The notes under the pieces were generated by a model that was not told the DNA's origin, did no database searches, and worked only from the letters and a program-made list of their open reading frames with translations. Shown one piece after another: positions 9,640-34,956 of a stretch of DNA of 64,000 nt. The stretch covers positions 20,090,001 to 20,154,000 of the forward strand of contig OZ076409.1 in assembly GCA_964187785.1 (NCBI GenBank), written 5' to 3'. A program made the position numbers and the translations under genes. This stretch comes from Amphiscolops sp. MND2022. Taxonomy: Eukaryota. Numbering within the stretch: position 1 is the stretch's first letter; every line of letters begins with the position of its first letter.

Positions 9640-10470
9640 CAATCATACATGTTTGTAGGCGACAGTTGTCTGCATTCCTTCTGAATCTTTGAAGAAAATT
9701 AAAAGCTGAGTTGACGTTAGTTTGTAAATTATTGAACACCAATGTTCTGTCTAGAGTCATACTGATGTTTAGATCGTTTTCCAGATTCGCCATGAAATAG
9801 GGCGACAAATTCCGTTTGGATTTGACCATTCGGATTTTATTACAAACATGTATTGAGTGAGATGAACAATAATAAGAAAAAACAATGCGTTGTTTTGACT
9901 TCTTGGAGCAACAAAGGGGAAGGCAAGATAAAATGTGATTTGTGAAATCTTCAAGAGAACCTGGTTGTTGGTTGCAGTACATTCTGTTGTAAAGAGTGTC
10001 TAAAAGCGCTTTGAATAATTCCTTGTTGAAACTGCCACGTGAAAGTTGTCGAGCAGGGTGACTGTCATTTTGTAGGTCATTAATGTCAACGAACTCGCCA
10101 AAGATTGCAAAGTGGTCCGAGTATAACAAAGACGAGGGATAAGTGTTAGAGGGTGCTGAGTTAGTGAAGATTGGTTTCAAAGAGTTTCTTGTCTTATGTG
10201 TAGGAAATTGTACCATCTGAGCAAAATCGTTTTGTTTAAAAAACGAAAAGATTGATTGTTCATAGATGGAGATATTGTCGAAGGCAGTAGTTAGGTTAAA
10301 ATCTCCTAGTACAAAATTTTCAGGCTGCTCTGAAACTGCATTCTTGCGAATTTGCTCCAAATGAAACTCAAAACAGAACAGTAATTGATCGAGAGCAATA
10401 CGATAGTCGGAATAAGTGAAGATCGCGATCGTAACTAACGTCTGAAAGTCATGCACCGTAACCAAGGTCT
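9640..10470 (-). mobile_element. CR1-type LINE ORF2 fragment (APE endonuclease and linker)
   Basis: VLGDFN, QMVQFPTH, SDH and KQRIVFSYYCSSHSIH match the intact ORF2 at 21203 (KRLSLPFYYTSHSIH). Confidence 0.8.
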
Positions 10471-10498
10471 AAAATGAACACGAATAACGTTTAAAGAA

Positions 10499-10697
10499 TA
10501 ATGTGGGGTAATATAGGGTGTATGCACGCTCGCTCTCACCGTCGCAAAAACCAGCTGCCACTAAGATCGCTTCGCCATTCCCGTTTCCGTAGAGTCTTTA
10601 CTCCTGTTCGACCTCGCTCAGCAAGGTGGGAACATAAGCAGCCCCGAGGGGAGCGGGGCGCCGGAGGAAATGGGGGAATATCCGAGGCACGTTTTAA
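10499..10697 (+). repeat. ~200-bp multi-hairpin core repeat, copy 1
   Basis: taatgtgggg...cctgttcgacctcgct...ggaaatggggg aatatccgaggcacgtttt aligns to the reverse complement of 18441-18642. Confidence 0.9.
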
Positions 10698-11110
10698 TGT
10701 AGCAAAGAATGGGGTATTTTGAGATCCAATTCTTGTGTGATCGAAAAGTGTGATCAAAAATTGACCAAAAATTTCGCTATGGAATTGATCCGTTTTTGCT
10801 GTGTTTTTGCTCCTGCAAAGCGTTTAAAAGCGTTTGAAATACCTTAGGTACTTTTCCCTACCTAATATGGGGTCATATACGATGAATGAGGTTGCCATAA
10901 TACTGTCGATTTCCTGTGGGCACAAACTACGATTCCAGGAATTAGATCGAAACGCACTTCTGTAACTAAGATCTAAAGACTCAAGATCTAAATGTCATTT
11001 TTCGTTACTAAGATCTAGATAGTGCCAGCTCCGGAATCGTAACTAGAGTCTAAATTTTTGGGTGTTATTCCGGTTTTTGGGACGTTATTCCTTATTTACA
11101 ATTGATTTGA

Positions 11111-11402
11111 AGTAGAAAACGTGCCTTTGGTATGTCCCCACTTCCTCTAGTGCCCCGCGGCTTTTCGGGGCCGCTTATGTCCCCACATGCTATATGAGGT
11201 CGAACAGGAGCGAAGACCTAACGGGGCCGGATATCGCGAAGCGTGCATACATCGGGTTTGCGTCAATAGCTTCAAATTTTAACACGTCGAATTCCTAACG
11301 TTGATCTCCGTTCCCGCTAGGACTTTGCTCCTGGGCAACTTTATGGGAACATGAACTGCTCCAAGGGGCCGCGGGTCACTAGAGGAAGTAGGGGCATATC
11401 CC
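11111..11402. repeat. Two partial core copies in inverted orientation (11111-11255 minus, 11303-11402 plus)
   Basis: atgtccccacttcctctagtgccccgcgg on the left and ggggccgcgggtcactagaggaagtaggggcatat on the right. Confidence 0.8.
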
Positions 11403-14067
11403 ACGGCCAAAAAAAGTTATTTGAAAGCGCTAGGTATTTGAAAACGTGAAAACATTGACTCGATCTCAATTTCTTTGACCATTTTACTTCGAATTTGGTG
11501 ATAGATTGCGTATTCGCGAAATGGATTCGATCCTAACATCCACCGCCTACCAAAGGTATCTGTGAAAAGGTATATTTGGTTTTAACTTTTTAGAGGACGT
11601 TTCAGCGACATATTGTTGCCGAAACGTCTTGTTCCAACATGAAATACTTCAATAAAGGAGTAACTTAACTTTCACAAGAAGGGGAAAATTTCACGTTCCA
11701 AAGCAGAGCTTTCTCTGTGGAACCAGGAGCTGCAGGTGTCACATTGTACCCATTTATCGTTTGACCCTTCTTGCTTCTTGCATTTTTCACATTCGTAAGC
11801 ATTGGAGGCTGTTCGCAGGCGTCCTCGTGGTTTAGTCATTGACCTAGTGATGTTCCAGGGGACCAGTAACAATTAGTATCTGAAGCAATTAATAAGTTTG
11901 AGTAATGTGGACCTGATGCTTGACGTGGGATGAACGGTGTACAAAATCCCAATAAATCACATATCAATCAAACGAAACAACGAATGCATGTAGCACTCCG
12001 GTTAACATCATCAACGTTAGTCCTCTATACGGTACTCCCGAAACTTATTTGGACTTTATTCGTGGAACTAAAACATTGGACTCATTTGAAACACGTGTAA
12101 CACCTGTAGTCTTGTTTCATCTTTGAAACACCCGAAGATAGGATACGCTCGTTTTGCCAGAGCATCGATTACAGAAAAGCAACTGGCCCAGATCAAATTC
12201 CTGGAATAAGTTTCAAAAATTGTTCCAAGACCCTCAGCAAATCCATCAGCCAAATACTTTACAAAATCAAGCAGTCTGTTGTTTTCCCCTCGGTTTGGAA
12301 AATCTCGATTGTTAGTCCTGTCCACAAAAAAGGCTCAAAATCAGATGTTCTCAACTACCGAACCATGTCTCTTCTTTGCATAATCTCAAAAATCTTTGAA
12401 CGTTGTCTTTTTTATATTTGTATCCTCTCCTTGAACCGCTCTTTCATCCTGCACAATATGGTTTCCGCAAAGGTAGATCCTCAGTCCTACATTTATTGAT
12501 ATATGTTGAAATGATCTATAATGCACTCGAGTCGGGGCATTGTGAAGACGTAATATATTTTGACTACGAGAAAGCCTTTGAAAACGTGGATCACGGTTTA
12601 TTTTTGATGAAGCTCTCTAAGTTTGGCATTCATCGGAAAATACTGAAACTAATTGAATCCTATTTTACGAATCGCCAGCAGAGAATTCGCGTGAATGATC
12701 ACCTTTCATCACAAAAATAACGAGTGGAGTTCCCCAAAGCTCGATTATATCAAACTTATTTTTCCTCGTCTATATAAATGATCTACCGTCGTTATTCAAA
12801 TCTTCAATACCCCTGCTTTGCGCAGATGACGCTAAATTTATTGCAATAAAGAAACAAAAGCTCCATTTTCAGCTGGACTTGTCTCGAGTGAAAAGATGGA
12901 GTGATACGCATCAACTACCACCTAATGTCGACAATTCTTCCCTTCTTTCCTTCCATGCTAACCATGTGGAGTTCGACTTCTCTGGAGATGAAATTCGCCA
13001 AGTTACGACGCAGAAAGATCTTGGAATTTATATATCCGATGATATGAAATGGAATCATCAGATTAAGACCGCAGCAAAGAAAGCTCTCGGCGTGTTCTCC
13101 CAAACTCTCTGCTCATACTAAACTGAAAGTAAACAAGTCAATAGTTTCCCGTATTGATTTATGGGAGTACCTGTTGTTTTGAAAAGTCGAAAACACCATA
13201 TAACTCGAAGGAATTCAGAAGAAATGCTTAAAAGCCGATCTGACAGTTAGACCTAACAGTTAGATCTAATTCCATTAGACCCAAGCATTTAGATCAATGG
13301 CGTACACCCCAAACTGCACCAGCAATAGCAACTACAAAGTGCTACTACAACAAAGCCGACTTCTTCCACTTTCACTTTATTTGCAATTACAAAATATTTT
13401 AATGCTGTCAAAGATGCCCAGTGGATACTTTGTCTTCGATCCATCCTCTAGAGGCCCCGAGAGCACTGCGAACATCCGGTGATATCCAATTCGAACACGG
13501 AAAAAGGATGCTTCAACTAAGTGAACAAAGTTTCTTCTACCGAACAACTGCCTGGGTAAAGTAAATGGTCACTTGGCTTAATGCCATTTGGCTTAAAGTC
13601 ATTGGGCTTAATATAGTTGGTCACTTGGCTTAATTTTTTTAAGCTAAGTGTCTCGGGTATTGGTCACTTGGCTTAAAGTCATTTGATTTAAAACCACTTA
13701 GTTGAAAAAACGTTGCAGATTTTGTCGAATTTATCTTTATAACGTAGTCGGCGTATTATTATAACGTCATATCAAGTACCCCTCGCATATGTCCCCATTT
13801 CCTCTAGTGCCCTGCGGCCTCTTGGGGCCGCTTATATTCCCGTCTTGCTAAGCGAGGCCGAACAGGAGCAAAGACCTAGCGGAAACGGAGATCGCGAAGC
13901 GATCGTAGTGGGAGCTGGTCTTTGCGACGGTGAGGGCGAGCATGGATTCACCGCATATGCCCCACATTATGTTATTTCAGGGAGTTGACATATTTATTCC
14001 TTGAGTTGGAATGGAGTTGGCTTAATTTTGTGGTCACTTGGCTTAAAATTCTTAAACCAAATGACTC

Positions 14068-14300
14068 TATTAGGGCCTGGGCTCCTTCTGGTCGTAGCTG
14101 GGTTGTCGGAAGATTGGTGAAGAGTGGTTATTGTCAATACTTTATTTTGTGTTGTGAGTTGATAAAGTGATTCAGTCAAGTGAAGATAAAATAACCGGTA
14201 CATGTTTACAAACAACAATAATATACTAAATTAGTTCAGTCTGGTATAGTCTGAGATGGTTGACCTTTAATGGTCCTTTGACCTTCATCGATCTCTAACA
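14068..14300 (-). repeat. Copia 3' LTR
   Basis: Near-identical to 19255-19486 and adjacent to the PPT. Confidence 0.95.
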
Positions 14301-17300
14301 CCCCCGCTCGATGAGAGACTCCGAGGGTTGTTGTTTGATGATGGCGAACCACTGTGCTTGACCATCTGTCGTGTCAAGGCAGCGGTTGAGAGGGCTCTAT
14401 CCATCAGTTGAAAAGAAGCTGAAAGTCGTCATAGTCCAAGTGATAACATAAATACTATAATGAGAAATGTAAAATAATTGAGTTGTGAGGGAGGCAAGGG
14501 TTAAATTGTTGATTGGGGTGGCTGAATGACGAAGAGTAGCGATGAGAGCTCATTGAAGGCAGGCTTGGGTAGGTTCTTGGTGAAGATATCAGCCAAGTTG
14601 TTTTTTGTGGAGACATAAGACAGTTGAATGCGTTTGTCCTCAACCAGTTGACGGATGAAGTGGTGTCGGGTTTCTATGTGTTTAGCACGTTTTGGGCGAC
14701 AGGGTTGCTGGCCAGTGCGAGTGCCCCTTGATTGTCACCACACAACAGAACAGGCGTGTCCACCGTCATCAAACAGAAGAATGTGAGCAAGCCTTGCAAA
14801 TAGACTGCTTCCTGTGCAGCCAAAGCCAACGAAACATACTCGGCTTCGCAAGAGCTAAGTGCCACACACCCTTGCTTTTTGGACGCCCAAGAGACAACAC
14901 TACCAGAACGACTTAGTTTGAAGCAAAAACCCGAAGTTGACTTGCGATCGTCCTTGTCGGAATCCGAAAAACCAAAAAGTTCGAGATTTTCAGAGCGGTT
15001 ATACACAAGAGATAGAGACTCGGTGCCCTTGAGAAAACGGAGAAGGTGTTTCAATGCACACCAATGGGCTTTACCAGGATTTGACACGAATTGTGCTAAG
15101 TTATAGACAGCAAAGCAAATATCGGGGCGACTAACAACGGACAAATACATCAAGTTTCCAACTAAGCTACGATATTGTTTCTGTTCACAAATATCAAGTG
15201 AATTGTCACTACCTTCGATAGGGCAGTCCAATTTTGACTGTTTCGTATGGGGAATAGCTGGAGTACTGACTGGTTTACAATCAGACATATTACTTTTGCG
15301 CAAAAGGTCCTTTATATAGGACCGCTGACTAAGAGAAATGCGACCGCGTGACTGTTCAACATTGCATCCCAAAAACCAAGTCATTTTCCCACGATCATCG
15401 ATGCTGAATGCATCGCTGAGTTCCGCCTTGAAATCATGCAGCATTTTGTCGTTGTTTGAAAAGTACAAAATGTCGTCGACCCAAACTAGTACAAATAGTT
15501 GGGAACCATTAGTCCCATCGCAACGAAAAAGACAATGATCCTCGGCAGACTGTACAAATTCGTTCTTCAAAAACCACTGGGTTAAAGTTTTGTTCCATTC
15601 CCTCCCTGCTTGCTTTAAACCATAAAGGCATTTTTGAAGCTTGCAACAAAGTGTTTCACCATTAGCCCCCGCTTGCGCGAAGCCTTCTGGTTGTTCTATA
15701 TAAATTTCATCACTCAAGTTCGCATTGAGGAAGGTTGAACGGACGTCTAACTGAAAAACAAAAGTCGACCAAGAAGCAGCGAGCGCGAAACAAATCCTCA
15801 AGGTACAAAGTTTGGCAGTAGGCGCAAAAGTTTCATCGTAATCGTTCCCAAAAACTTGCGAAAACCCTTGGGCTACGAAACGAGCTTTGAATTTTTCAAT
15901 AGTTCCGTCGTCGTGTCGCTTAATTTTGAAAACCCACCGGCTTCCAATTGCTTTTCGGCCTGGGGGAAGCGGAGAAAGCACCCAGGTTTTGTTCTCAATA
16001 AGCGCATCGTACTCTATTTGAGTAGCTTCGATCTATTCGCTTTTAACCGATGACTTCATTGCTTCACGATAAGTTAGATTCTCATCGCTGTCATCCGTTA
16101 AAAGAACGTAGTCGTCTAGATACGCAGGCGGTTTGATAACTCTCGCACTACGAAACCGCAAAAAAGCACTACTTTCATTGGCATCATTGTTTTCAGATGA
16201 AACAACATCAACGGGGAAAGGAATCGTTTCAGTTTCGAAATCATTCAATGTTTCAGTCGGTAAAATAGGAACTGAAGACTTTTCGCAAAAATGTTTCTGT
16301 GTTTCAGTCAGAACTTGTTTCGGTGCCGGTTTTTTTGGTTACAAATGCTCGGATGTTTTGACTTGTGTGCGCAGCAAAAAAGTCGAAAGAAGTCTCATCA
16401 AAGGAGACGTTGCGAGAAAACGAAGTCTTTTTAGAATAAGGATTGTTCAAAATGTATGCTTCGGAATCCTCAGAATAACCAACGAAAACTTCTTTGGTGG
16501 CTTTATCGGAAAGTTTGTCTTGATGCGTTTCAATGTGTTTGAAAGCAGTACATCCAAAAACTTTCAAGTTGGGAAGATCTGGTTTTTTACCAAAAAACAT
16601 TTCTAAGGGCGTTTTACCTTTTGGTAAACTAACTGTGAGGCAACGATTTGAAATTTAAAAAGCAGTGTGTAAGGCCCGAACCCAGAATTCATTGCCGAGT
16701 TTTGCTGTTTTTAGCATGCAGCAAGCCATTTCAACTGTTGTTCGCCAGCGACGTTCACTCACACCATTTTGATGAGGCGAATAAGGGGCAGTATGCTCTC
16801 GTTTGATTCGGATTGATATACAAAAACTTCGAAAAGACTTGGAAATGTACTCTTTCCCATTATCAGAACGGATTGCTCTGGGCGTTCCGACTTGCGCACA
16901 AAAAACTTTGAATTTATCTAGGCACTCCTCTTTCAATTTGAGGAAATATACCGCTGAGTACCTGCTGTAGCTGTCCGTAAAAGAAATAGCGTATCGATTG
17001 CCACCAAGCGAAGTAGTTGGCATCGGTCCCAAAATGTCAGTGAAGACGAGATCAAGTTTCGAAGATTTTCGTTTCTACTTTTTTCGCGATACTGGTTGCC
17101 GTCGTGACTTAGAAATTTTGCAAACTTCACAACAACAAAGTTTATCAAAAGCACTGTGTTTCAAGCTCATCCCCGAAACATGATGAGCCAAACGTTTCAC
17201 ATTTTTGAAATTGTTGTGACCACAACACCGCTTCTTCGTTTTCGCCGGAAAAAGAGCAAAAATCAAATGTCTTTCCTTTCAAAACGTAAAGATTAGCGTG

Positions 17301-18284
17301 CTCTTCAAAAGGAATAGTTGCTCTTTCATTGACAAAAATGCTCAGAGACTTTCCGAAATTCACTTGAGCCCCGTTTTGTCTCAACTTGCTAACGCTGATC
17401 AAGTTATGAGAATGATCAGGAAGAAAAAGACAGTCGGAAAATGTCACACAGCGTTCGTCCCTTCTTTGTCCAAAAGTAAAAGAGAAACTTTTCCAACACC
17501 CTCAACTTGCGAAAAAGTCCCATTCGCATTTTTTACTTTGCGTTGTGTTTCTTCGCTAAAGTCGAACAACAGGGAACGGTCAAAAAACATATGCGAGGAA
17601 GCACCAGAGTCGATGACCAAAGTGTGCTCCTTCACCTCGCATTTTTGGCTAGTGAGTGCAGTCTCACTACCATCGCAAAAGAAAACTAAGTCCTCAGCTA
17701 GGTTTGACTCTCCTGTCTCAGCACTTGACTTAGGGTTCAAAAGAGGGTTTTTCTTGAAACATTTATTCTCTTCATGGCCAAAACGCCTGCAAAAGTTACA
17801 CTGGGATACTCTACAAATGGCTTGTTTATGTCCATTTTTACCGCAACGCCTACACTTTCCATTGAATTTTTCAGGTTTACGCGCGGAACTTTTCGCAAGA
17901 GTTCCTTTGGATAACAAGGCAACATTTTCATTGCTAGCTGTCGCAGTTTGTAGGTTACGAGAACTTTCTAAATTTTTTAATGCTTTTTTTACTTCCGCAA
18001 AAGACGCCTTATCTTTCGAAAAATCGTGCACAGTTTTGAAATAGTCATATTCGGAAGGCAAACCCTGAAGAACTATCGAAGTTAACATGTTTTCAGAAAC
18101 TTTCTCACCAGCGAGCTCCAACTGCTTACTCACATACTCCGCTCGAGTCAGGTAGTCAACCATGCTCTCCGTGGGCTCCTCGGTGTTTCGGTGCTGTTGA
18201 AGTGGTCCTGCAGTAGTTGCCATGCCTTCGGACCATCACCTTTGCAGTCGTTCGTCAGCATCAGGATACTGCGGCTGTCAAGAC

Positions 18285-18794
18285 GGGAACAAGACGTTTC
18301 GGCACAAGACGTTTCGGCAACAAGATGGCGGAAGACGTTTCGGCAACAAAATGTTGCCGAAACGTCTTTCACCTGCTGTGAAGACGTTTCGGCACCAAAG
18401 ACGTTTCGGCAACAAGAAGAATAATCTGTAGTTTTCTTTAGTATGAAACGTGCCCCATATATGTCCCCATTTCCTCTAGTGCCCCGCGGCCCCTTGGGGC
18501 CGCTTATATTCCCATCTTGCTAAGCGAGGTCGAACAGGAGCAAAGACCTAGCGGAAACGGAGATCGCGAAGCGATCGTAGTGGGAGCTGGTCTTTGCGAC
18601 GGTGAGGGCGAGCGTGCATACACCGAATATGCCCCCACATTAGAAGAGGAAAGTACTGAAAATTTGTTGCCGAAACGTCTTTCACCTGCTGTGAAGACGT
18701 TTCGGCACCAAAGACGTTTCGGCAACAAAAAGTTGCCGAAACGTCTTCCGCCATCTTGTTGCCGAAACGTCTTGTGCCGAAACGTCCGGAACCC
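18285..18794. mobile_element. Foldback element A (aagacgtttcggcaac inverted arrays) with core copy 18441-18642, inserted in Copia gag
   Basis: 8-bp TSD gtcaagac (18277-18284, 18795-18802) and long near-perfect terminal inverted repeats (TIRs). Removing the element restores gag LVQCLD|SRSIL. Confidence 0.92.
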
Positions 18795-19254
18795 GTCAAG
18801 ACACTGTACCAAGTACGCCCAAATTTCGTACTTCTTGTCATTCGTGCCAGCATCTGTTCCATTCAGCACGTTCAGGAGCTTCTTCGTGAAACAGAACCCC
18901 TCGAATCGCTCCTGCCACACAGCGAAGTCTTCTTCCTTGCCAGAGAACTGGAGATACTGCAAAGGTCGATCCATCCCTCACAAACTCCAACAAAAGCCCG
19001 AAGCAGGCAGAAAGAAGTAACTGAAACAAAAATGAGGGGAGCAAAACAGGGATTCCCACGAAGATAAGCTACAAAGTTAGCGAAAGCGAAACAGCGGTAA
19101 CGGACGGCATAAATAGCAAAAATTGTGGATATCCGAGACGCGAAAAGGAAAAATGGAGAGCGAAAAATAAGATCAGACGAGCATAGTCAAAGTAAGCAGA
19201 AAAAGGTTTTTTTAAGGAAAAAGGCAAACTCACCAAATTGCTGGGTCCCTAACC

Positions 19255-19486
19255 TTTAGGGCCTGGGCTCCTTCTGGTCGTAGCTGGGTTGTCGGAAGAT
19301 TGGTGAAGAGTGGTTATTGTCAATACTTTATTTTGTGTTGTGAGTTGATAAAGTGATTCAGTCAAGTGAAGATAAAATAACAGGTACATGTTTACAAACA
19401 ACAATAATATACTAAATTAGTTCAGTCTGGTATAGTCTGAGATGGTTGACCTTTAATGGTCCTTTGACCTTCATCGATCTCTAACA
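19255..19486 (-). repeat. Copia 5' LTR
   Basis: Starts TGTTAG on the minus strand and is followed by the PBS. Confidence 0.95.
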
Positions 19487-20380
19487 GACTCGACGAAAAA
19501 ATTAAGCCAAATGGTATTAAGCCAAGTGACTGGTAACCCTGGGTAAATCGTTTGCCCAGAGATGTCCAATTTGACGAACCTTTTGGCCTCAAACAACGCT
19601 TCCTAAAACACCTGTGGGCTCACTTCGACAGCTGTTACAATGAAATTGTCCGCTCAACATGAAGAATTTAATTTGGAACCACGAAATGTGAAAGGGAGAA
19701 TATCCCTGTACCACTCAACGACTAGTCATGTTCATACTACTTCTACGACTACTACTAAAAATATTACAACCTGCACTTTTTCTCGAAAAATAATACTCAC
19801 GGGTTATAGACGAAAATTCGATTTCAAATTCATCCAATCAGTTTGCAGTATAAACTAATATTCTGTTCGAGACAATTTTTCGTTTTCTGCTGTTCGTAAC
19901 TTTGGCTGTTTAGGAATTGCCCTTAAAATCAATTTTCGATACCTCCTTTTTTGCAACCAGGGGTGTGTATTTTCACCCACACCCCCCCCCCCCCAACATG
20001 ATGACGGCGGGCGGGAATAACGTCTAAGGAATAACGTCTAAATTTAAAACGGGAATAACGTCTAAATTTAAATCATTTTTCAGGAATAACGTCTAAAGTT
20101 TTGGACGTTATTCCCGTTTTTTTAGACGTTATTCCCGTTTTTTAGACGTTATTCCTGTTTTGAAAGTTGAACTTTCTGAAATCAAAAAAAATAAATTTCT
20201 GAATATTTTCACAACAAATGGCCGGCACAAAAATGGGTCCTGGCAAGTGTATCATTGTCTACGGTACCCTTAATTCGAACAACAACAATTCATAGTTATT
20301 TATTTTTCCCACTTAATGTGGGGGCGTTTTCGGTGTAGCCTAATTGTTGTGATAAACTTATTAAATAGTTTCCGGTTGTG

Positions 20381-21193
20381 ATGCCTCCAAAAAGACAGAC
20401 GAAGCAGACAAACAGCAAAAGTGCAACTACTGACCTCCTACCCTGTGCAAAAGAAACGTGTGGAAAATGTGATGTGGAGGTAGTTGACGGGGATTCAGCC
20501 CTGGCCTGTGAACAATGCCTCAGGTACTTCCACGGGGTCTGCTTGGGCGTAAACAATGCTGTGGTGACGGCAATGGGGAATCTCCCTGGGTGCTACTGGT
20601 TCTGTGAAGAGTGTGATGGACCTCAGCGGGCTCGTGTGGATCTGCCAAAGGAAACTGAAAAGCTAAGTAAAATGGTTTCTCATTTGAATACATTAGTAGC
20701 AAAGATTCCTCCTCTTGAGATACCAAAAACTCCTGATTCATCGACTGCTAAAATAATGAATGTAATGACTGACGATTATAAATGTCAAGTACGTATCTCT
20801 GGCATTGAAGAAACTCCTGAAAACACTGCATCAAAACAGATGATTAAAGATCAAGTTCAAATTGAAGAAGTCCTTGAGAAAATTGACTGTTCCTTCCCGA
20901 TCAAAGGTGTAAGACGAATGGGCCGCTATTACCCAGGACGCAAACGGAAAGTTTTAATAACATTCCAATCACCATGGGAAGCACGGCTGGTCATTGCCAA
21001 AGCGATTGAAAATAACCTCTTCCAGGAACACAAAGTACTGATTACTCCTGGGCTTTCCAAAGAAGACGCATTGCGCGAGAAAACGCTCCTGCAAAAGAGA
21101 TATGATATGATACAGAATGGCACTGATTCAAAAACTTTGAAAATTAGAAAACTTAAACTCTACCAAAATGGCAAGGAGGTTCAAATTGAATGA
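20381..21193 (+). CDS. CR1-type LINE ORF1 (PHD finger plus C-terminal domain)
   Basis: PHD pattern CGKC..ALACEQCLRYFHGVC..YWFCEEC, then VRISGIEE and RRMGRY..RKVLITF. It lies directly upstream of APE-RT. Confidence 0.9.
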   Translation: MPPKRQTKQTNSKSATTDLLPCAKETCGKCDVEVVDGDSALACEQCLRYFHGVCLGVNNAVVTAMGNLPGCYWFCEECDGPQRARVDLPKETEKLSKMVSHLNTLVAKIPPLEIPKTPDSSTAKIMNVMTDDYKCQVRISGIEETPENTASKQMIKDQVQIEEVLEKIDCSFPIKGVRRMGRYYPGRKRKVLITFQSPWEARLVIAKAIENNLFQEHKVLITPGLSKEDALREKTLLQKRYDMIQNGTDSKTLKIRKLKLYQNGKEVQIE

Positions 21194-21202
21194 CTCACAA
21201 AG

Positions 21203-24013
21203 TTGGAAGAAAAAGTTTCTAAAATTCTCTACTTGAATGTGCAAGGTCTCTTATCGTTCCAAAAATGTATTGATTTACAAAAGCTTTATCTGACTGGTTC
21301 ATATGATTTGATGCTGTTATGCGAAACCTGGTTTGACGAAAATGTTGAATCGATTATATTTCCTAATGACATCCCAACAGTCCTGAATCGAGCGGATCGG
21401 AAGGATGGTTCACATGGTGGTGTGGTGATATGTTCGAATACTTTGGATACATCTCCGGTCAAAACAAATTTCGACTTCGGTTGCGCTGTTATTTTCCAGA
21501 ACTGCTTGGTGATAGTTATTTATAATCCTCCCCTGACCAGCAAATACCGGATAATGGATAAACATCTCCTCAATTTTATTAAATCGGTTATTTGCAAAGC
21601 TTTTTGGTCGGTCGAGAAAAATATCTTAGTGTTAGGCGATTTCAATATCCCTTCGATTAATTGGGCACTCTTTCCCGCTCAAATTCCCGAGGAGTACTCC
21701 GAAGTTTTCAATTTCTTCATTCACAATGGCTTTGATCAATTAATTCATCAAACGACCCATGACGGAGGCAATATTCTAGACCTTTGTTTTGCAAACTTTG
21801 ACATTCAATCAATCTCTGTGTCGGGAAAAAATTTCCAATCTGACCACTTCGGAATAACTATTATTCTAGAAACTTTTCATCTTAAAAAGTGGGAAATGCC
21901 TCAATCCAACTCAACCTTCTCCCTTACTCCAGATGCGGTGGAAAACATAAAGCTTGACCTATCTGACAATATATTTTCAATGGTACAGCCAAATTCCGAA
22001 TCTACTTATAGCCAGAATTGGTTCGATAATTTCGACGAAATTCTGAAGAAACACATGAGAAAGAAACGTCAAAAGCGTTTGAGTCTACCGTTCTATTACA
22101 CTTCGCATTCGATTCACCTTTATAATCAATTGAAAACCCTTGCGTCTTCAACGAAAAATTACAACATATCAAAATTTATGTCAGTGAAAAAAGACCTCTT
22201 GGAGTCTATTGAGTTGGATATCCATTGTTTTGTTAACCATTTTGTTAGTAACAACACGAGAATGCATGACTGTTATAATCTAGTCAGATCTTTCAAAAAT
22301 TCTTCGTCCTATCCCTCAAAAATGACATGGGAGAAAAAGAATTTCTCTGGTAAACCTGATATTGCCAATGCTTTCAACGACTTTTTCTTTTGCCAATATC
22401 AAGAATGTTCAACTATCAAAAATTTCAACAACTTCGATGAATTAGAATTGAATGATGTTGAAATCACTCTAGATGAAGTGTACTCAGTTCTAAACTGTTG
22501 CACGAATGGAACTGGACCGGATGGTCTTTCTGGGTTTCTACTGCGACAGATTTCCAACGAATTTAGCATTCATTTTCTTAAATTGGCAGAACACATTCTC
22601 AGTACATCAATTTTCCCGGCAAACTGGAAAACAACTTTCATTAGACCAATGCACAAAAAGAAATGTAAAACGGTAATCGAAAATTACAGACCTGTAGCAT
22701 CTTTATCCCGTCTTTCAATTTGTTTTGAACGGCTCCTTTTTAAAAAACTTTATCCCCACTGCTCAAAAAAGATATCCCATTTACAGCATGGGTTCATGAA
22801 AAGCAAATCGATACAATCCCAATTGTTAATTCACTTAGATTACATATACAACAACCTTGACAGAGGAGATGAAGTTTTCACAGTTTATCTTGATTTCAGC
22901 AAAGCGTTTGATCGTGTTGATCATGAGATTTTATTGAAAAAGGTTGCCAGTTTTGGGATTGGTGGCAATATACTCAAACTCTTGAAAAGTTATCTCGAAG
23001 ATCGTGAACAACGAGTTAAAATTGACGACTGTCTCTCAACTGCCCTTCCAATCAAAAGTGGTGTCCCCCAAGGCTCGGTTATTGGACCTTTATTATTTTT
23101 AATCTTCATTAATGATTTGCCTGGTGTTTGTGTCGACTCAATAATGTTACTCTTTGCAGACGATTCGAAAATCTCAAATGCTGATCCCATTGAACTCCAG
23201 AATGATCTTATAAGGATTTATAACTGGGCGAAAGCAAATAAAATGGAATTCAATAACACGAAAACTGAACTACTATGGTTTACTCTTCATCGCTATAAAA
23301 TTTCTGATAGACGTGTATTGGTCTTTGATTCTAAAGATATTGAGTTTTCTACGGTCCCTATTAAAGATTTGGGTATCAATTTTACGTCTGATTTGAAATG
23401 GTCAGCCCACATCGATGTTCGTATTAGAAAAGCTTTTTCACGATTCATGATGTTAAAGCGGTCCTTACCGACTACCTTACCGGCTAATGTAAAATCACAA
23501 GTTTACAAACTTTATATCCTACCAATAATCACCTATGGATCAGTCCTATGGTTTCCCAACAAGACTGATATATCGAAATTAGAAGTCTTTCAAAATAAAG
23601 TTATTCGTTGGTTTGGACTTATAGATGATTATAAGGATCGGTTATTAGCCCTAAATTTGCTTCCCTTTTCTCTGCTGTTTCAGTTGAACGACCTCCTATT
23701 CCTACATCAATGTATTGTGAACGATTCTCCGATATGTTCAGGACTGCTCTACAAAGAATCTCTCCGCCATTATGACACCCGATTTTCATCACGAAAACTT
23801 CTCTTTAAAAAGAAAACAAGACTGAAGTCCACTGACAGCTTTTTCATAAACAGAGTTGTTAATCTAGCTAATTTCGTATCATCGAAATTCGAGATTGACT
23901 TCTTTGACACGACCTCATTTAAGCCTAAACTGAAAAATATTTTTCGAAACTACCTTAAATATGGCTATGATAAATCGGATTGTAGAAGGTTTTTGAAGTG
24001 CTATTGCTGTTGA
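21203..24013 (+). CDS. CR1-type LINE ORF2 (APE endonuclease plus reverse transcriptase), uninterrupted 936 codons
   Basis: APE motifs NVQGL, LCETW, LGDFN, LDL and SDH; RT motifs GPDG, NYRPVA, QHGF, LDFSKAFD, GVPQGS and FADD. The 3' UTR has a hairpin tctac-agaaaa-gtaga and a short cta tail to 24096. The start codon is uncertain. Confidence 0.95.
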   Translation: MEEKVSKILYLNVQGLLSFQKCIDLQKLYLTGSYDLMLLCETWFDENVESIIFPNDIPTVLNRADRKDGSHGGVVICSNTLDTSPVKTNFDFGCAVIFQNCLVIVIYNPPLTSKYRIMDKHLLNFIKSVICKAFWSVEKNILVLGDFNIPSINWALFPAQIPEEYSEVFNFFIHNGFDQLIHQTTHDGGNILDLCFANFDIQSISVSGKNFQSDHFGITIILETFHLKKWEMPQSNSTFSLTPDAVENIKLDLSDNIFSMVQPNSESTYSQNWFDNFDEILKKHMRKKRQKRLSLPFYYTSHSIHLYNQLKTLASSTKNYNISKFMSVKKDLLESIELDIHCFVNHFVSNNTRMHDCYNLVRSFKNSSSYPSKMTWEKKNFSGKPDIANAFNDFFFCQYQECSTIKNFNNFDELELNDVEITLDEVYSVLNCCTNGTGPDGLSGFLLRQISNEFSIHFLKLAEHILSTSIFPANWKTTFIRPMHKKKCKTVIENYRPVASLSRLSICFERLLFKKLYPHCSKKISHLQHGFMKSKSIQSQLLIHLDYIYNNLDRGDEVFTVYLDFSKAFDRVDHEILLKKVASFGIGGNILKLLKSYLEDREQRVKIDDCLSTALPIKSGVPQGSVIGPLLFLIFINDLPGVCVDSIMLLFADDSKISNADPIELQNDLIRIYNWAKANKMEFNNTKTELLWFTLHRYKISDRRVLVFDSKDIEFSTVPIKDLGINFTSDLKWSAHIDVRIRKAFSRFMMLKRSLPTTLPANVKSQVYKLYILPIITYGSVLWFPNKTDISKLEVFQNKVIRWFGLIDDYKDRLLALNLLPFSLLFQLNDLLFLHQCIVNDSPICSGLLYKESLRHYDTRFSSRKLLFKKKTRLKSTDSFFINRVVNLANFVSSKFEIDFFDTTSFKPKLKNIFRNYLKYGYDKSDCRRFLKCYCC

Positions 24014-27000
24014 TTTTTGTTTCTTATATTTTCAATCATAAATAATCAGGCTGTTTAATATCTACAGAAAAGTAGAATTTAAGTCTTTTACTACTACCTG
24101 TTCGACCTCGCTTAGCAAGATGGGAACATAAGCGGCCCCAAGGGGCCGCGGGGCACTAGAGGAAATGGGGACATATCCGAGACATGTTTTATACTTTGAA
24201 TCACTTCATAGCATCAGATCTTAATTGACCTGAATTTTTTCAAATTTAGACGCTATTCCCGTTTTTCGGACGTATTTCGACAAATTTTCTGTATTTTAGT
24301 CGTTTTTCTGTAATTAAGACGTTATTCCCGTTTTCAGGTTTAGACGTTATTCCTCTTTTTAGACGTTATTCCTCTGTTTAGACGTTGTTCCCGTTTTTTT
24401 AGACGTTATTCCCTAATATTTCAATTTAGATGTTATTCCTTTAGACGTTATTCCCGGTGGACCTTTAGACGTTATTCCTTAGACGTTATTCCCTCCTCTA
24501 CATGATGACACTCATGGTACTTGATTGATGAAGATCCATGGTATCTGATAGATTTTTGATACCCCGTGTGCGTTATAACTGTCAAGAGAACATATAGCCT
24601 TTTGATTGAATCGAAAAGTTTTAGAATTCGTAAATGACAACAACGAAGGCTTGTAATAGTAAATCGCGACGACGAGGTGAGAAATTGTCGAGTGAGGAGC
24701 TTACCAACACTCTGGCACAGATACCCGATAGTGTGTATTGGAAGTCTCTGTTCAGCTGGCGCCAGGATTTTGAAAGCAAGAAAAGCAGTTTCGAGAAATG
24801 TAATTCTCTGTGTTGATTGTTCCTTGACATATCCGTATCTCTTCAGTAATCTTTTGACGCGGCCTTCCTCTTTTTGCGTCTCCACGCCCCTCCGGTTCGG
24901 CCTTCGTCAGAAACGGCTGCTTGTCAAGCCTTTACTCCTGCATTCTGAGTACTAGGGGTATGAATATAAATGGCAAATATAATCGCATATAAATGGCAAA
25001 CTTTCAGCGTGACGAGAATGCATGAAGCTGTATACATATTGTCCTTTTCATCTCACTTGTTCTACTTATGTTTTCGTTTTTGCATAGTCTGTTATCTGTT
25101 TTTGCGACTCTCTATTCTCTGATACCTTTTTAGTGCAAAGCGAATTGGATCAAAAGTTTGGTAACATAATCCTGGATTGTGGAAACCGGAAATGTGATGG
25201 TACTACCAGCGCTCGCAGCTTTGAGGAAGTTGGAACTTTGGACCAAAGCATCTCTTTGAAATCAGTTGTTCAAAGTACAAGTGATTCGCTGAAAAAAGTA
25301 GATCATCACGTCAAGAAAATTGTGCCTATTTTCGCTCGCGAGAAACCTCATCTCAAAGCAAAGCGTTCTCAACAAACTGGGGATCAACGCTGGCATCATG
25401 AAGATCATTCGTTTGGAGATAGCGGCTATTATCGCTCAGATCGACATAGTATAGAGAATTGACGCTTTTCCATCGAATTTTAGAAAGCTAACATGTTGAA
25501 GTTTTTAAAAACTTGGCTGAGTAAAGCAATTTTCAAACGAGACGATAAATGCTAATCAGCTCATTTAGTAAGTCTGTCAATTGTCTAATGAGGTGTTGAC
25601 GGTGGATATCATTGCACTGACAACAAGTACGAAGATCCTGCAATAGTGCAAAAATGGATTTCGGATTCGCCTCCAGTTTTTACAGCCACTGGCGATTCAC
25701 AATTTCGGTACAAAGAGCCTCTTGGTACATATAACACGACCGCGCCCTTAATTGATTACTTACCCGCGAAATATATAGCAAGAAAAGACTGTCATCGCAG
25801 TGTCTTTGCCAATGTGACAGCAATTCATCACGCCATGTGTCCTTACGCCACGCATCAGTTACTGATATCCATCACTCATTTGTCGCTGGAGTTTCTTTAG
25901 AGGTGCTTGAAAGTTAGTGAGTTATGAAAGTGATGGATTTCGGTTGAAAGGCTACAGAAACCATCACCTCAATCGCCGATGCCTCTTCAAAGTAGTAGAA
26001 AAAACATTACCTCTGGATGTCCTTTTCAACATCAAAAAGGTCCCAATGTAGGTAAGCCTTTATTCAGTTGTGTCCGATCGAGCGTGATACCAAGACTGTT
26101 CATCTAGAATCTCCGAATCTTTGTTTCCAGACAATCGGCCTAGTCTCCGTACGCGCAGTCAAAGTGCACATGGAAGCTACTTAGAGCTGGAAATGAAGGT
26201 TGCGTATCAATACTCTTACATAGTTCAAGGACTAATTTAGTTCGACTATGTACTGCTTTAATCTTTCCCGTTCTACATTGACCTTTTCTTTTTTTTAGCT
26301 TCTATATTTTCCCATATTACCCGTTTTAAACTGTGGTTACAGCGTGTTTTTTGTTAACTCTGTATGAGCCCGACTATAATTCAGACTTTTTAAAGCTCTT
26401 GCCAACTGACACTTTCAGTGTCTTCACCGGAAAGTAAGAAAAATGGTTTCATTTCATATATTTGTGTGTGTGAAATTTTGAAGAAAAATCCGGACGTCTT
26501 TGATTTAAATTTTTGGATGACCGTATTCTGAGCTCAAATGCAATTTTTTGGAATGGCATTTTGACACCGCTATTAGCCGAGGATAAAATTACACTTCTTT
26601 GGTTTTTCATTTTCCCCGCAGAACGATCTTCGTTCAATATTATGATATTTTTCATTAAAACGAATCCAATTAGTGGTGCTCTGTGTCTTTTTAAAATGGT
26701 AGAATGCATGACTAAGATGAGATGAGTTCAACATAAAAATCGTTCAAGAAACGTCATCAAAAGTGCAAAGCAGAAGATTCGGACAGACTTTCGAATACAT
26801 CGGTGTATGATCAAAGACCGTGTACCCCATATGCAGAAGAAAACGTGGAGCCCCCTGTTGAGCCCGCTAACAGACTTTACTCGTTGCGAAACCCTACTTG
26901 TCATAAGCATACACAGATAATGAAATCTCCCTTCATTGCCCCTGACCACAGTTTCAGCCCTAAGATAAACAAAGGCGTGCCTAGAACAAATCAGAAGAAT

Positions 27001-27444
27001 TCAGTGATATCAGAAGTCAGCCCTTCTCTCAGGCAACAACTAACAGTAAACGAGAATAAGTGCGTTAACCTTCCCTCTTTCACCGTGTTTCGTGTTTTCG
27101 ATTTTGTAACTTTCGTCTAATTAGGAGATCGAGAAGTTGCGGAGATTTGCCCAAAGAAGAACAGCCGTTACTGACTAACCATATACATCTGGTTATTAAG
27201 ACTTCTGAAGTAATCTATCATTGACTATTTTTGACATCGCAGCACCAGTGCGGTGCTATGCGAAAATTTCTACTCTTTTGTGTTTTTTGAAGTTTTCAAT
27301 CTACTGGTTATCTTGTGTATGTCGATCCATCCATACTCCAAATTATTACAATTTTCTTTACAAATGACTTCTCGGTTTCAATTTTGAGCTCAGGGAGCCA
27401 CTATTAAGATCTAACGCCCAAGATGTAACTAAGGCATTGGCATA

Positions 27445-27570
27445 GCTGTTATACGTACGCTCGCTTTCGCCGTTAAATAGACCAGCTCTCTCTCGATCGC
27501 TTCGCAATTTTCGCTGCTGCTCGACCTCACTTTGCAAGACATCCACTGGCAACCGTGGGACTCTGGTGAG
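27445..27570 (+). repeat. Degenerate core copy between inverted agatctaacgcc / ggcgttagatct motifs
   Basis: acgctcgc..gaccagctc..cgatcgcttcgc..tcgacctc follows the core motif order. Confidence 0.55.
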
Positions 27571-29355: not shown

Positions 29356-31546
29356 CAACTCGACTGCAATGTCTCTTTACTATAGTAGTTTTTTCATTCA
29401 GTATTTTTTTAAAAAATGAATGCGTCTATTGTGCTATTTTTGTAGCCCATATCACTATGCCATTTTAGATAATTGGCTGTTTAAATTATAATTTTTCTGA
29501 AAAGTTTTTTGTTCAAAAGTGTTATGCAAAAAAGGATGGTTATATTTTCGGATTTCTTGGACGTTAATTTTCTGCTATGATATAATCTATATAACTCAAT
29601 GGATTACCCAATTGAATGATGATCCCAGATCGATTTTTGTTTCTGCAGTGATAATGATGTTGTTTTCGGAGATGTTTCGCAATTGATTTTGAAATGCCGG
29701 AACAGCATTCAATTGCGATATCCTGGATAAAACTCCGTTCATCTTGTTTTCCGTCCCGCTCATGCTCATCTAATAAAACTCCACTCGTAAAATGCATGGC
29801 ATTTTTGATATGAGTATTCAAAGGTCGTGGAAGTTCCGTATTTCCGCGAATAAAAGCCGCTGTATACGTTATTTTTACTGCTTTCATTAGAGGGCGGCCA
29901 CTATTCAGGTGCCACTTTTATCATAATTATCTTAGTTACGTAGCTGATTTTGAAATCTGATTTTTGTGGAGCCAGCTTTGAGTTTCCAATGACTTAAAAT
30001 TTTGATTTTTAATCCAATGATTTTTAAAATGCAAATTGAAGCTTCTGGAGACGATGCGACCTTCTTTGTGCCTTGCATTGATGGAAAAATTATCTTCCTT
30101 TTCCATAGCTTCCTTCTTCCAAATAATAGTTACTTCGATTCAATTACAACCTGTGGATTCTATTTTAAAAAATTGCCGAATTTGAACCGCTATTTCTTAG
30201 CCGACGTGTATTTTTCAGGTTAATTTTTTTGAAATGAAAAAAAGGCAAATGAAAAATCTATTTCAAGTTTCTTAATCGGCGCTATATGAGGCAATTCGTT
30301 ACAACCGAAGTCAGGGCACCTTTTAGTGCTCAAAAATCGTGAAATACTCAAAATTACGAAGGACCTGTTTTTAGAAAGTTTGTAAATCAATACAGAGTAA
30401 CTTGAAAATGGGGCCATTTGGGTTCGTTGTTTCCCTCGTGGATATTGCCAAAATGTTGAAGTTTTCATAAAGGAACCCTTTTTGGAACTAAATATTCCAG
30501 ATGAAAATTCTTCATTCTAGCTTCGTAAGAAGGTTGATGTACTCATTTCGTCTAGGGGCCTTTTTGATGTTTTCGACAGATTAGCCCGATCTTAGTAAAC
30601 TATCTAGAACCCCATCTTCCGCCTAGCAAGACGTAAAAAGTGAAAATGCCCTATATCTGTATTCATACGTTGTACGCGAATCATTGTACGTTATATGCAT
30701 TATATCAAGCAATGTTATTATTCTAGTTCATTCGAGGAAAAATTAGGCCACCCATTTTTTCATTATGAGTTGCCGGTAAAATATGTTGAATTTATAAAAA
30801 GTGGAATTCTCGGTGACATCTGAAGAAGCCTGCCACTGTATTAATTTCAATTTTTTTTTCAAAAGGCTTCGATAAAAACTTTAAAACTTTCTTTGTTACT
30901 GTAGGCAACGCCCTGAATTTTTTTCGATCAAATCGGTAAACACGAAATCCCACATTTAATGTTCATTCTGACAACCTTTGCACAGATCAGTCACTTTAAA
31001 ATAACTTATACATGTCTTCTCAAAGTTATCGTGAACGTCATTTGACAGTAACATTCACCTAAATTGTTGTCGGTTTTGTCTATTTATCACATTAAAAATT
31101 CGCAATTGCCGAAATCAAACCCCAATAAGTTCAAAATCCGGAAAAATTCCGACCAAATTGTTCGATCCGCTCGACCCCGAAGATCATCAGTCTGAGAAAA
31201 GGTAGCATTACCATGTTTTCGTAGATTGTGAAGAGAATATGAAAATGTTTCACTTCTTTTTTGCCGAAATCTTTTGGTCTGGTTATTTTTTGTAGGGGCG
31301 CGAATAACGTCTAAAAGTGTTTCAGGAATAAAACTGTGCCTCTTTTCTTCTTTTTCAGTTTTTTGCGAATTATCAAAAACTTTTTGATGTATAGAAAGGA
31401 CCCTGAGTTTACAACCATGAAACCCCATTGAGATTTTCAGCATCAATGTACTTTTTGAAATTTTATTCAGCCTCACACTGAAAAGTCCAATTGTGGTGCT
31501 TCTTAGCGCTTTCGTATCATACCGTAGTATTTCTACAATTTATTCA

Positions 31547-32287
31547 AAAAGCGGGGAACGGCCCAAGTTGGTACCCCGTCCAGGGTTCAAACAGAGTGAA
31601 ATTCAAAAGGACAGTATTGTGAAAATTATGAAATTTACAGTGCCAAAAATATCCGAAGGAATCTCCAAAGACTGAAACAGCTTTTTCACTAACTCGAAAC
31701 ATCAAAAAACCCAATTTTTGAACAAAATTTGATATTTTTTTGCTTTTCTGGGAAAGTCTCATAGAAACACCCAAAAACAGACCCTTCCAGTTCGCAAAAC
31801 ACTTTTTCCAAGCCCAAATACTTCTTTTAAAGTCAAAGGATAACCCTTCGACATGATCAAAAAGTTTTTTCTCACAGATATTGAGAAAACTCTCATCAGT
31901 CCCTCAGGACCGAAAAAATGACCAGAGGTGTCACCCTCAAGACTCAATAAGCTATTCGCTTTGAGAGAAAACCTCAAAAAAACCAAAAATTATGGTAAAA
32001 ATTGAAAGGGGCTTCGGTAATTAAAAAATCAGCAAAAAATTGCAAAGTACCAAAAAACCCATAGGTACCGGGGATCCTTTAGTCTTCTACCTTTGCAAGC
32101 ATAGAAATTTTGGTTTAGTGCGGGACTCGAACCCACGTACTCTTGCCTTTCAGACACCGTCATCAGAACTGGAAATCGCTGTAACCGCTAGGCCAAAACA
32201 CCAGAGCAAGCAACTTGCAGAAATCTGCCAGTTCGTTGTCATGAAACTGCTGTAGTCGGCTTTTCTACTAGAAGCGCCGGCTAAAAA
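31547..32287 (-). mobile_element. DINE-1/HINE-like non-autonomous Helentron
   Basis: Degenerate family ends ggggaacggcccaagttggtacc and gaagcgccggctaaaaa. Confidence 0.6.
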
Positions 32288-32698
32288 GTCGCCTTTAAAA
32301 AGCTACAGGAATAAATATTCCCCTTCTTTAAAAAGCTACATCAGACCAGAAGGGCCCCCTTTTAAATTTTTCCGAAACTGCGATTTTTAGAATGTAAAAC
32401 ATTCAGACAACTGCGCTTGCAGGCCTTGAGCGGTTGCCGATATGGGCGTTCCTGGTATGATTAAGAGGTAGATCAGTAAAAATACCGCAACTTGTTTTCA
32501 TGTTTAAAAAAACTAATTAAATTGGTTGTTTTTCCGCTAAAATTTTTCATTTGCTTTTTTAATGCTCATTTCATAGCAATTTTTCGCGCTAATTCAGTGA
32601 TGGGTGGGCTTGGGCCTTCCCGTTTCTTTCAGTTGAGTGTTTGATTTGTTGGTTGTTCAGTACTTCAAATTGCTTTTTATTTTGGCGTGAGATCCGAA

Positions 32699-33109
32699 AT
32701 GACTGAAGAGGAAGTGCTACATAGAGGAGGTTGCCACTGTGGTGCAGTCAAATGGACGTTTTTGGCTCCCAGCGATTTGGATGTTTTCGATTGTAATTGT
32801 TCCATTTGCTACAAAAAGTCGTTGTTTCACGTTATTGTTCCAGAGGAAAAATTCACACTTCTACAAGGAGAGGAATGTCTTACTATTTACCAGTTCAACA
32901 AGAAAATAGCTGTTCATCCGTTCTGCAAGTTCTGTGGAACCGAATCGTTCTATAGACCCAGGTCCAATCCCAATGGCTACGGTATCATGTACAGATGCAT
33001 TGAAGGTGATACGTTGAAGAACGTCACGTTCCATAAAGTAGATGGCCAAAATTGGGAGCTGACTGTGCCTGGAAACCAGCTTTTGGCTTCAAAAACTCCT
33101 AAGAAGTGA
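32699..33109 (+). CDS. CENPV: Centromere protein V / GFA-family zinc-binding protein
   Basis: HRGGCHCGAV, DCNCSIC, HPFCKFCG and PRSNP motifs; ATG at 32699. Confidence 0.92.
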   Translation: MTEEEVLHRGGCHCGAVKWTFLAPSDLDVFDCNCSICYKKSLFHVIVPEEKFTLLQGEECLTIYQFNKKIAVHPFCKFCGTESFYRPRSNPNGYGIMYRCIEGDTLKNVTFHKVDGQNWELTVPGNQLLASKTPKK

Positions 33110-33133
33110 GAAAAATTATTAGTTGCTGAGAAC

Positions 33134-33390
33134 GGTGGCAGGACAAAATAACCAAAGTCAAAATAGCCAAAGTCAAAATAGCCCATGCCATAATATCCAA
33201 AATGCCAAAATAGCCAATGCCAAAATAACCAACGCCAAATAAGCCAATACCAAAACAGCCAAAGTAACACTATAACATTGGCTATCATGTCACGTTGGCT
33301 ATTTTGTCACTTTGGCTATCATGTTGGATATTTTGGCATTGGCTATTATGGCATTGGTTATTATGACTTAGGATATTCTGACATGTAACC
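33134..33390. mobile_element. Foldback MITE with ~15-bp aaaatagccaaagtc inverted arrays, no core
   Basis: 9-bp TSD gctgagaac (33125-33133, 33391-33399) and GG...CC termini. Confidence 0.9.
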
Positions 33391-33759
33391 GCTGAGAACA
33401 CATATCGGAGATGAAACCAAATTGCTATTAATTCGTCGGTTTTCGCAATTAATTGCATTATCGCATTTATACAAAAATTTTATTTCATCAAAATTCTGTA
33501 AACGTCTATTAGTTACAATTTTTTTAATTCATATATTTTTCTACCCAAACCTTTTTTAATTTGATTTCAAAATCGATTGTTTCATTCTCAATATCATATT
33601 ACCATTTGATTGGTATCGCGACTTGATTTATCATTCCGTAGAGTGGGTATCAAGTGTAGACGTGAAAGTCTTGTTTCTCCTTTTTCAGTTCTTCGTGACT
33701 GGCAAACAGTCATTTTTTTGATGACAAAACTCAGTCTTTCAATTTCCGTATCTGTTTTG

Positions 33760-34334
33760 AACAAGACGAACGTGTAAAGTCGGCGCTATATCTGAGGCTC
33801 AAAAAACGCAAAGTTTTTAAAATTGTAAAAGGGGACTCTTTCAACTTTTTGAAAATCCACTTTGTTGCAAAATATCAAGAAAATTGAAGGGGACCCTTTG
33901 GAGACATAAAAAAATTCGAAAATTTTTTGAAGAAGTTTTTGAAGAAGTTTTTGAAAAAAAAAACAAAAAATGAGAGTTTTGAAACGGTCTCATAGTGCCA
34001 AAAAACTTGAAAGGGGAGACCCTTTGGGCTTTTTGAAACTTCAGTTTGCTGCAGAATATCAAAAAACTTGAAGGGGTACCCTTTGGCGACAAAAAAAAAC
34101 GAAAAGTCACACAGTGCCGAAAAAAATTCAAAGGGGACCCTTACGTTAAAAAATGAGTACACGAAAGGGGGGGGGGACCCTTTGCACTAACTCAGATGCG
34201 ATTCCGCTTGCCGGTCCAGTACTTTAGTAGTTCTGTAAAAAGTGTCCACTTCGCATACATTCTGTGGTCTGACGAAAAAAAAACTTGCCACTGTAATAGC
34301 CGGCCTCATTTTGATAAAATGCGTCGACTAAAAA
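33760..34334 (-). mobile_element. DINE-1/HINE-like element
   Basis: Ends aacaagacg..aagtcggcgc and gcgtcgactaaaaa, with internal gggaccctttg repeats. Confidence 0.7.
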
Positions 34335-34956
34335 TATACCAATTTGATTCCGTATGCACCTTGAGCTGAGCAGTAATCATTTTACTCATCGAATGATTCC
34401 AGCTTTTCTACCGAAGATCCGGATAAGCGATGCTTAAGTTGTGACTATCTTGGAGGTTTCATTTTGACTGAAGTGAAATTTTTCAGTTGAACAATTTTCT
34501 GAATTGTAGTTTCTTCGTGATGGTGCTTGTACTGACAATAGCATATTAACAACTGTTGTTCAAAGCTTTTTTGAGAAAGGTATAGGGTTGCTGTTTTTAT
34601 GGGTCAAGGAATTTCATGAAAATTGGATTTTGCCAAAAGGAATTTTGGAGAAATCTCATCAACGTTAGGGGTTGCTCTGAAAAAAACCTATTAATGTTTT
34701 ACGAACCCAGCCGTCCTCCTTCCAAAGTGCTTGGCGCCCTTCGGGTCGGTGTTCGTGAAAACCAGCAGCTAGTGGCAGTTCGCTTCGTTTTGGTCCTGCG
34801 TTTACTGCACTAGAGGTATGTGAATCACGATTCCCTTCTTTAGAAGTCGTTTGTTGTCAAAAATTTTGAAGGTTAGATCTTATGTAGATACTTACAGTCT
34901 CTCGACTTGACAGTTTGAAATTTTTGGACTACAAATGAACATTTTGCCCGCCACCA

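Follow-up and report, generated by a model that had tools for sequence, protein, structure and literature searches.

Foldback elements of the window and their common core

The window analysed here is a 64-kb stretch of the 1.07-Gb genome of Amphiscolops sp. MND2022, and all coordinates below are positions within it. It holds three miniature foldback elements, A, B and C, named after their terminal arrays or shells, each with its own array and its own target duplication and all enclosing the same short sequence, which we call core 1 (Table 1). The elements and their cores were located as claimed in an original prediction made from the sequence alone. The reference core of A contains three short hairpins and imperfect direct repeats at both ends. 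It is 95.1% identical to the core of B over 184 bp (E 8e-78) and 92.9% identical to the right piece in C over 99 bp, and positions 24097-24176 differ from A at a single base, as had been stated (judged by eye). The core of B is indeed shared with A, except that sharing starts at about 13781, and the first ~13 bases that the prediction assigned to it are not shared.

Element A does not lie beside B. It sits inside a Copia-type long terminal repeat (LTR) retroelement with 99.6% identical LTRs and a 5-bp target duplication, which is itself inserted in the right arm of B. The core of C is split because a non-LTR retroelement inserted into it, replacing ~80 bp of core. The first 31 bases of this retroelement, which ends in a short trinucleotide tail, match the spliced leader of an acoel as described in PMC9911081, which makes an acoel host likely.

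Four copies had been overlooked, three of them older (10499-10694, 11111-11243 and 11303-11401) and one a distant relative (27439-27539). The latter represents a third, more distant core variant, and further core types may exist. No core was found in the foldbacks at 33134 and 47764, in agreement with the prediction. The former (33134-33390) is 257 bp long, has a 9-bp target duplication and belongs to coding parents found at four loci (L186, L191, L199 and L200).

Table 1. Foldback elements, core copies and inserted retroelements in the window
Feature	Position	Strand	Remarks
Older core 1 copy	10499-10694	-	85% to A; adjoins degenerate D-type arrays
Older truncated core 1 copy, D-type shell	11111-11243	+
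Older truncated core 1 copy, H-type linker	11303-11401	-
Target duplication of shell B	13552-13559 and 19539-19546		8 bp
Shell B miniature element	13560-19538	+	~550 bp if intact; right arm interrupted by LTR element
Core 1 in shell B	13781-13969	+	short 5' form
Copia-type LTR retroelement in B right arm	14068-19486	-	Pfam RVT_2 and gag
Target duplication of shell A	18277-18284 and 18795-18802		8 bp
Shell A miniature element, within LTR element	18285-18794	+
Reference copy of core 1 (shell A)	18441-18642	+	G+C-rich
Target duplication of shell C	19996-20005 and 24500-24509		10 bp
Shell C element, subtype C2	20006-24499	+	core in reverse orientation
3' piece of core 1, shell C	20314-20337	-	basis includes locus L277
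Full-length non-LTR retroelement within C core	20338-24096	+
Spliced leader of non-LTR retroelement	20338-20368
PHD-finger open reading frame of non-LTR retroelement	20369-21193
Endonuclease and reverse transcriptase open reading frame of non-LTR retroelement	21194-24013
5' piece of core 1, shell C	24097-24195	-
Distant core 1 relative, flanked by short arrays	27439-27539	-	profile E 1e-12

Abundance of the core, its shells and their coding parents

Is the common core a peculiarity of this locus? The phenomenon is real, genome-wide and larger than first noted. One 30-base word of core 1 occurs 3,358 times in the genome, while the reversed-pattern control occurs 0 times; together with the E value of the match between A and B, this excludes chance. 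For the A core there are at least 1,230 candidates genome-wide, the best 40 of which are identical, and the copies fetched carried the left A arm in 30/30 and the right A arm in 29/30 cases. An evenly spaced 800-kb sample contained 4 core copies, which extrapolates to ~5,000 in the genome with a wide margin. The copies are clustered: 19 of the 99 gaps among the first 100 matches are shorter than 2 kb, compared with 0.75 expected. Among the first 60 consecutive matches on contig 1, an inverted pair of 12-mers spans the core in 37, against 25 of 400 random places; a looser test for a shell (a repeated 10-mer on one side) gave 56/60 cores and 256/400 random places and thus no separation. A recognisable shell arm or linker was present on at least one side of nearly all of the 58 viewed among these 60 copies, in which we distinguished ~15 shell types by eye, and a consensus could be built for 11 groups, with C counted as two subtypes. 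The cores do not lie mostly outside foldbacks, nor did the shells prove to be one homologous family, the two outcomes that the original prediction had named against itself. No host source of the core was found in the 800-kb sample or in the 58 copies viewed, and exact core words occurred 0 times in metagenome or viral contigs.

Exact left ends number 111 for A, 730 for B and 181 for C, and the first 30 of each along the genome were examined. The A ends led to a core in 27/30 cases and to a coding element in 3/30, with 0 empty shells. For B, 29/30 had a core, and in the remaining one a leader-headed insertion interrupts the core just behind its first bases. Whole or partial cores followed 24/30 C ends; three ends seem core-less (L271, L286 and L299) and three were left unclassified. 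The earlier statement that the core is not required holds for some families, but in the sampled non-coding copies of A and B the core is nearly obligatory.

Many other foldback families hold a distantly related sequence, core 2, the ~140-bp interior of shell J (L337, L331-L360). One 30-base word of core 2 occurs 4,820 times genome-wide, and its first 30 copies are spread over about a dozen shells (by eye). The two cores share two collinear blocks with 23/29 and 29/41 bases alike; their whole-length score was equalled by 20 of 2,000 shuffles, and the window tests that gave stronger results were picked post hoc. Shell J was found with core 2 or with core 1 (L389 and L400), so that at least one shell accepts either core. 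Core 2 behaves like core 1 and is a natural replicate of it. Its apparent presence within the coding parents L210 and L181 is due to separate neighbouring miniature elements, and at the coding parents L207 and L197 it appears nested.

A search with the Mule domain (PF10551) gave 150 scored matches, and 70 of these loci were fetched. Among them we found coding elements with A, B or C arrays at both ends, namely L219-221, L223, L225 and L231 for A, L222 for B and L234 for C, the last with a frame of only 328 residues; parents of shells D-J and of the other shells were not found among the Mule loci fetched. The transposases are 41% identical between A and B, 27% between A and C and 25% between B and C. 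A and B were joined in a quickly built tree, which placed C elsewhere and had several long branches, including that of C; it was used only alongside the pairwise identities. Identities and tree together show that the shells are separate families of one superfamily. They have the 8-10 bp target duplications and arrayed inverted repeats by which Mutator-like foldbacks are recognised, and are close to the Phantom type known from Tm1. The A transposase contains Flywch (E 8e-7) and Mule domains, while for that of C Pfam gave the Mule domain alone and no match to Flywch. Loci L171-L240 comprise ~20 Mutator families with different arrays and with left and right termini that differ; some distant families among them seem to have terminal motifs in common.

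The parents of A, B and C have no internal core. Core matches fall outside their ends, and the sole internal one belongs to a B copy nested in L225. Miniature A and its parent have just 97 and 101 bases in common at the two termini, and for A and B the shared ends measure ~85-125 bases. The miniature elements are therefore not classic deletion derivatives, since an interior that contains the core is not parent-derived; as in Pack-Mules, it was captured from outside the parent.

Constancy and probable transfer of the core

The borders of the core are graded, with a variable 5' border and a fairly sharp 3' border. One right linker is common to A and E, another to C1, F, G and I. Remnants of older shells are also present: C-type arrays survive within D shells, C1 linkers within I shells, and a flank of core 2 within B. 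Chimeras with the arms of two families (B/D, B/A and F/D; L068, L259 and L035) change their diagnostic bases within the core. The original prediction had offered two possibilities, a mobile module of its own that seeks out the centres of foldbacks or a cassette exchanged among families. Exchange of a cassette is borne out by transposases that are 25-41% identical, by core-less parents and by chimeras that switch diagnostic bases in the core, whereas the graded borders, the linkers common to several shells and the 0 empty A or B shells in 60 ends speak against a module targeting foldback centres. At L068 (113-820) the B-left/D-right chimera lies in head-to-tail repeats, and L087-L089 consist of 1.7-kb tandem units holding a B element; satellite DNA might arise from either.

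Targeting seems to run the other way, with transposons landing on cores. The insertion point lay within core 1 or core 2 for 7/30 A, 6/30 B and 1/30 C elements compared with 0/160 random places, and a core was found within 1.5 kb upstream of the insertion point in 38/90 cases compared with 5/160, counts which include a few B cases that represent neighbours or possible rearrangements. Because the insertion points are spread out, the idea that the core is targeted at a specific site was rejected. Leader-headed retrocopies, which rely on an enzyme different from the Mutator transposases, were counted 18 times across 858 kb from these loci (one being that of the window) against 1 in the 800-kb even sample. 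This ~17-fold enrichment points to general accessibility more than to one transposase. Trans-spliced transcripts of this genome are retroposed whole, and such retrocopies gather at foldback clusters; spliced-leader-headed elements were seen at L008, L011, L025, L065, L079, L153, L219, L222, L274, L294, L304 and L310.

Comparing 236 near-complete core copies, we found that the differences between families are concentrated at the two ends of the core. Over the central 141 bp the 11 family consensuses differ by 0-5 substitutions (mean 2.1), the core being ~99% constant between families, and linkers shared by pairs of consensuses differ at 4/57, 5/51, 2/41, 3/36, 5/109 and 29/97 positions, i.e. 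mostly by 5-30%. Between C1 and C2 the linkers are 30% apart and the adjoining cores one base apart. Each family keeps 1-4 diagnostic core bases across most copies. Among copies sampled by their ends, shared-variant sites amount to 14/435 in the core versus 94/1,465 in the arms (P 0.009), a deficit that fits selection on replicating copies, while a lower number of private mutations in the core suggests some gene conversion too.

Judging from these sequence comparisons, we see an even chance that the core is a passenger with neither gene nor ends, relayed between Mutator-like foldback families because it renders its own locus accessible. A host factor bound to the core would keep the site open. 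New transposons would land on such an accessible, core-bearing site by nested insertion and then capture the core, either through two insertions flanking it or when the gap left by an excision is repaired from a template nearby, and a subsequent internal deletion would leave new ends around an old core. Miniature elements with an intact core would be mobilised or recaptured more often, which would purge changes from the core, and recombination between cores contributes arm swaps and some homogenisation.

Several observations weigh against this relay. Of 28 nested insertions within elements, 15 fell in the core, with 11.7 expected; the core is thus not preferred, and the hot zone is the whole element, to which host promoters or the arrays may draw insertions. 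Three C ends seem to lack a core, two 19-bp stretches of shared linker show 0/19 differences, and several consensuses were built from 2-8 copies, some of which were chosen for their likeness to the core. The deficit of shared variants is significant by itself only in C1 (P 0.18 in B and 0.75 in C2). Private changes are fewer in the core (1.3% versus 2.0% in the arms, P 0.0003), which is predicted by gene conversion and not by selection on replication alone. The P values are moreover generous because the copies are non-independent and duplicated loci were not collapsed.

Gene conversion is indeed the main rival to a relayed passenger. The core would then be a recombination hub without function, captured in the distant past, kept uniform by gene conversion and crossing over among thousands of clustered copies, with the arms being shuffled in the process. 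The crossovers seen within the core of the chimeras, private mutations that are rarer in cores than in arms, and the contrast between the C1 and C2 linkers and their cores all agree with this. However, heavy conversion would erase the family-diagnostic bases, which persist, and it leaves unexplained the acquisition of complete cores by new shells, the lack of empty A and B shells and the repetition of the pattern by a second core, so that we regard a mere hub as unlikely. It also seems rather improbable to us that the relay is neutral, with transposases favouring the same host sites (e.g. promoters) and nesting there, and with passive inheritance of whatever happened to lie at the centre of the miniature element that first became abundant. 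Insertions along the whole element instead of solely in the core, and retrocopies that accumulate at the same places, would be expected under such a process, and it would also accommodate the finding that core 1 was near 0/30 top-scoring Mutator loci of other families, from which it follows that targeting varies by family. Passive inheritance is nevertheless difficult to reconcile with a core that stays whole and nearly constant while its linkers are trimmed and diverge, and with the excess of inverted repeats across consecutive cores over random places.

The two other explanations concern the nature of the core itself. A non-autonomous mobile element of the rolling-circle, recombinase or short retroelement type that inserts into foldback centres would account for the fairly sharp 3' border, the hairpins, the imperfect terminal direct repeats and the occurrence of shell J with either core, but not for the variable 5' border, the linkers common to several shells or the missing empty shells. 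No target duplication or tail of the core's own was seen at the copies viewed, and no core match was found in 20 Helitron and recombinase loci (108.5 kb in total), comprising 16 Helitron loci out of 152 matches (10 of them 3.5 kb and 6 of them 10 kb long, with some 5' ends uncovered) and 4/4 PF00589 loci without a core within 1.5 kb; this profile may miss divergent recombinases. Rfam gave no family-level match for 10000-25000 or for the core alone. From the ragged borders, the lack of an own target duplication and the lack of matches to Rfam, Helitron and recombinase loci, the core is probably not self-mobile, and we give an inserting element the least weight of all explanations. A short interspersed nuclear element was rejected as well, since the core lacks a tRNA, 5S or 7SL head (tRNA genes were absent from the whole window), a simple-repeat tail, its own target duplication and dispersed insertion, and a ribozyme, 7SL or polymerase III boxes were unsupported by eye against consensus features. 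Could the core instead have been captured as a non-coding RNA with a defined structure, or as part of an RNA gene of the host, and kept for a function at the RNA level? Its RNA fold has a z of -2.6, equalled in stability by 2/200 shuffles, and the core is near-constant between families. The opposite strand, however, folds about equally well (z -2.4), Rfam offers no match, both orientations of the core occur within family C and variation is too low for a covariation test, which together make an RNA role very doubtful; the folding of the core as DNA is unremarkable (z -1.5).

The Helitron and recombinase loci hold several further features. L415-L420 fall into several Helitron-type classes, whose open frames range from 1,300 to 2,600 residues, and many near-identical Helitron-type copies of 2,375 residues are clustered on contig 1 at 73-76 Mb. 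At L412-L414 a recombinase-like match recurs every 993 bp inside a single frame of 1,055 residues.

Tentatively, core 1 and core 2 may represent a new class of selfish DNA which, having neither a gene nor ends, would recruit a host factor, bait the active Mutator transposase, be re-shelled by each new family and outlive its carriers. Should the core work as proposed for the relay, selection could act on a non-coding module that passes from one transposon family to another and builds hot spots of insertion and recombination at thousands of sites. In this lineage of early-branching bilaterians, the core would also be a candidate for a regulatory element that is portable. For the general question of how miniature elements come by an interior unrelated to the parent, and why they are more numerous than the parent, the present system offers a testable case: the interior is defined and 190 bp long, the three parents have distant transposases, some copies are young and identical, and core 2 serves as a replicate.

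Elsewhere in the window, 31500-51000 holds another abundant A+T-rich repeat family with tandem units of 115, 49 and 53 bp, unrelated to the core. An open frame of 562 residues at 39045-40733 matches Pfam CCM2_C, and a direct repeat of 1.3 kb (54671-55961 and 61087-62383) is 87% identical.

Comparison with known systems

Elements that carry foreign or specialised interiors are well known. Pack-type elements, for which a double-insertion model of capture exists, likewise enclose sequence foreign to the parent between cut-and-paste ends, as do Pack-Mules; they carry varied gene fragments that decay, whereas here one and the same non-coding cassette is probably captured again and again, with hardly any change to it. 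In FB-NOF, the Drosophila foldback, a separate central module also lies within a foldback shell, but this module codes for protein and is tied to one shell, while the core codes for nothing and crosses families. The internal sequences of rice Stowaway and the anti-silencing motifs of Arabidopsis Vandal raise mobility, which resembles the putative contribution of the core to movement as a non-coding interior; these motifs are, in contrast, family-specific. Dine-1, a non-autonomous element associated with Helentrons, is short, hairpin-rich, non-coding and found within other elements, as is the core, which differs in lacking precise ends and sub-terminal inverted repeats at its borders and in having no match in the sampled Helitron loci.

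Our literature search, with most subscription journals and the repeat databases outside its range, returned no report of interiors common to unrelated inverted repeats. The shells and the route of capture are of kinds already known, whereas we could not match a single conserved passenger across distant families, in two versions, to a known system. The closest likeness is with Tm1, a Phantom-type element of root-knot nematodes described in PMC3169594, which also mentions Pack-Mules. Tm1 has a transposase with Flywch and Mule domains, asymmetric terminal motifs, arrays of 13-15 bp units in its inverted repeats, 9-bp target duplications and a non-coding class with a conserved interior, all comparable to the elements described here, as regards Flywch to the A element (PMC3169594). 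In that account the conserved interior is a histone hairpin, for which a function at the RNA level was proposed, and it is limited to one family, whereas the core reported here spans families whose transposases are 25-41% identical, as part of a pattern that a second core repeats.

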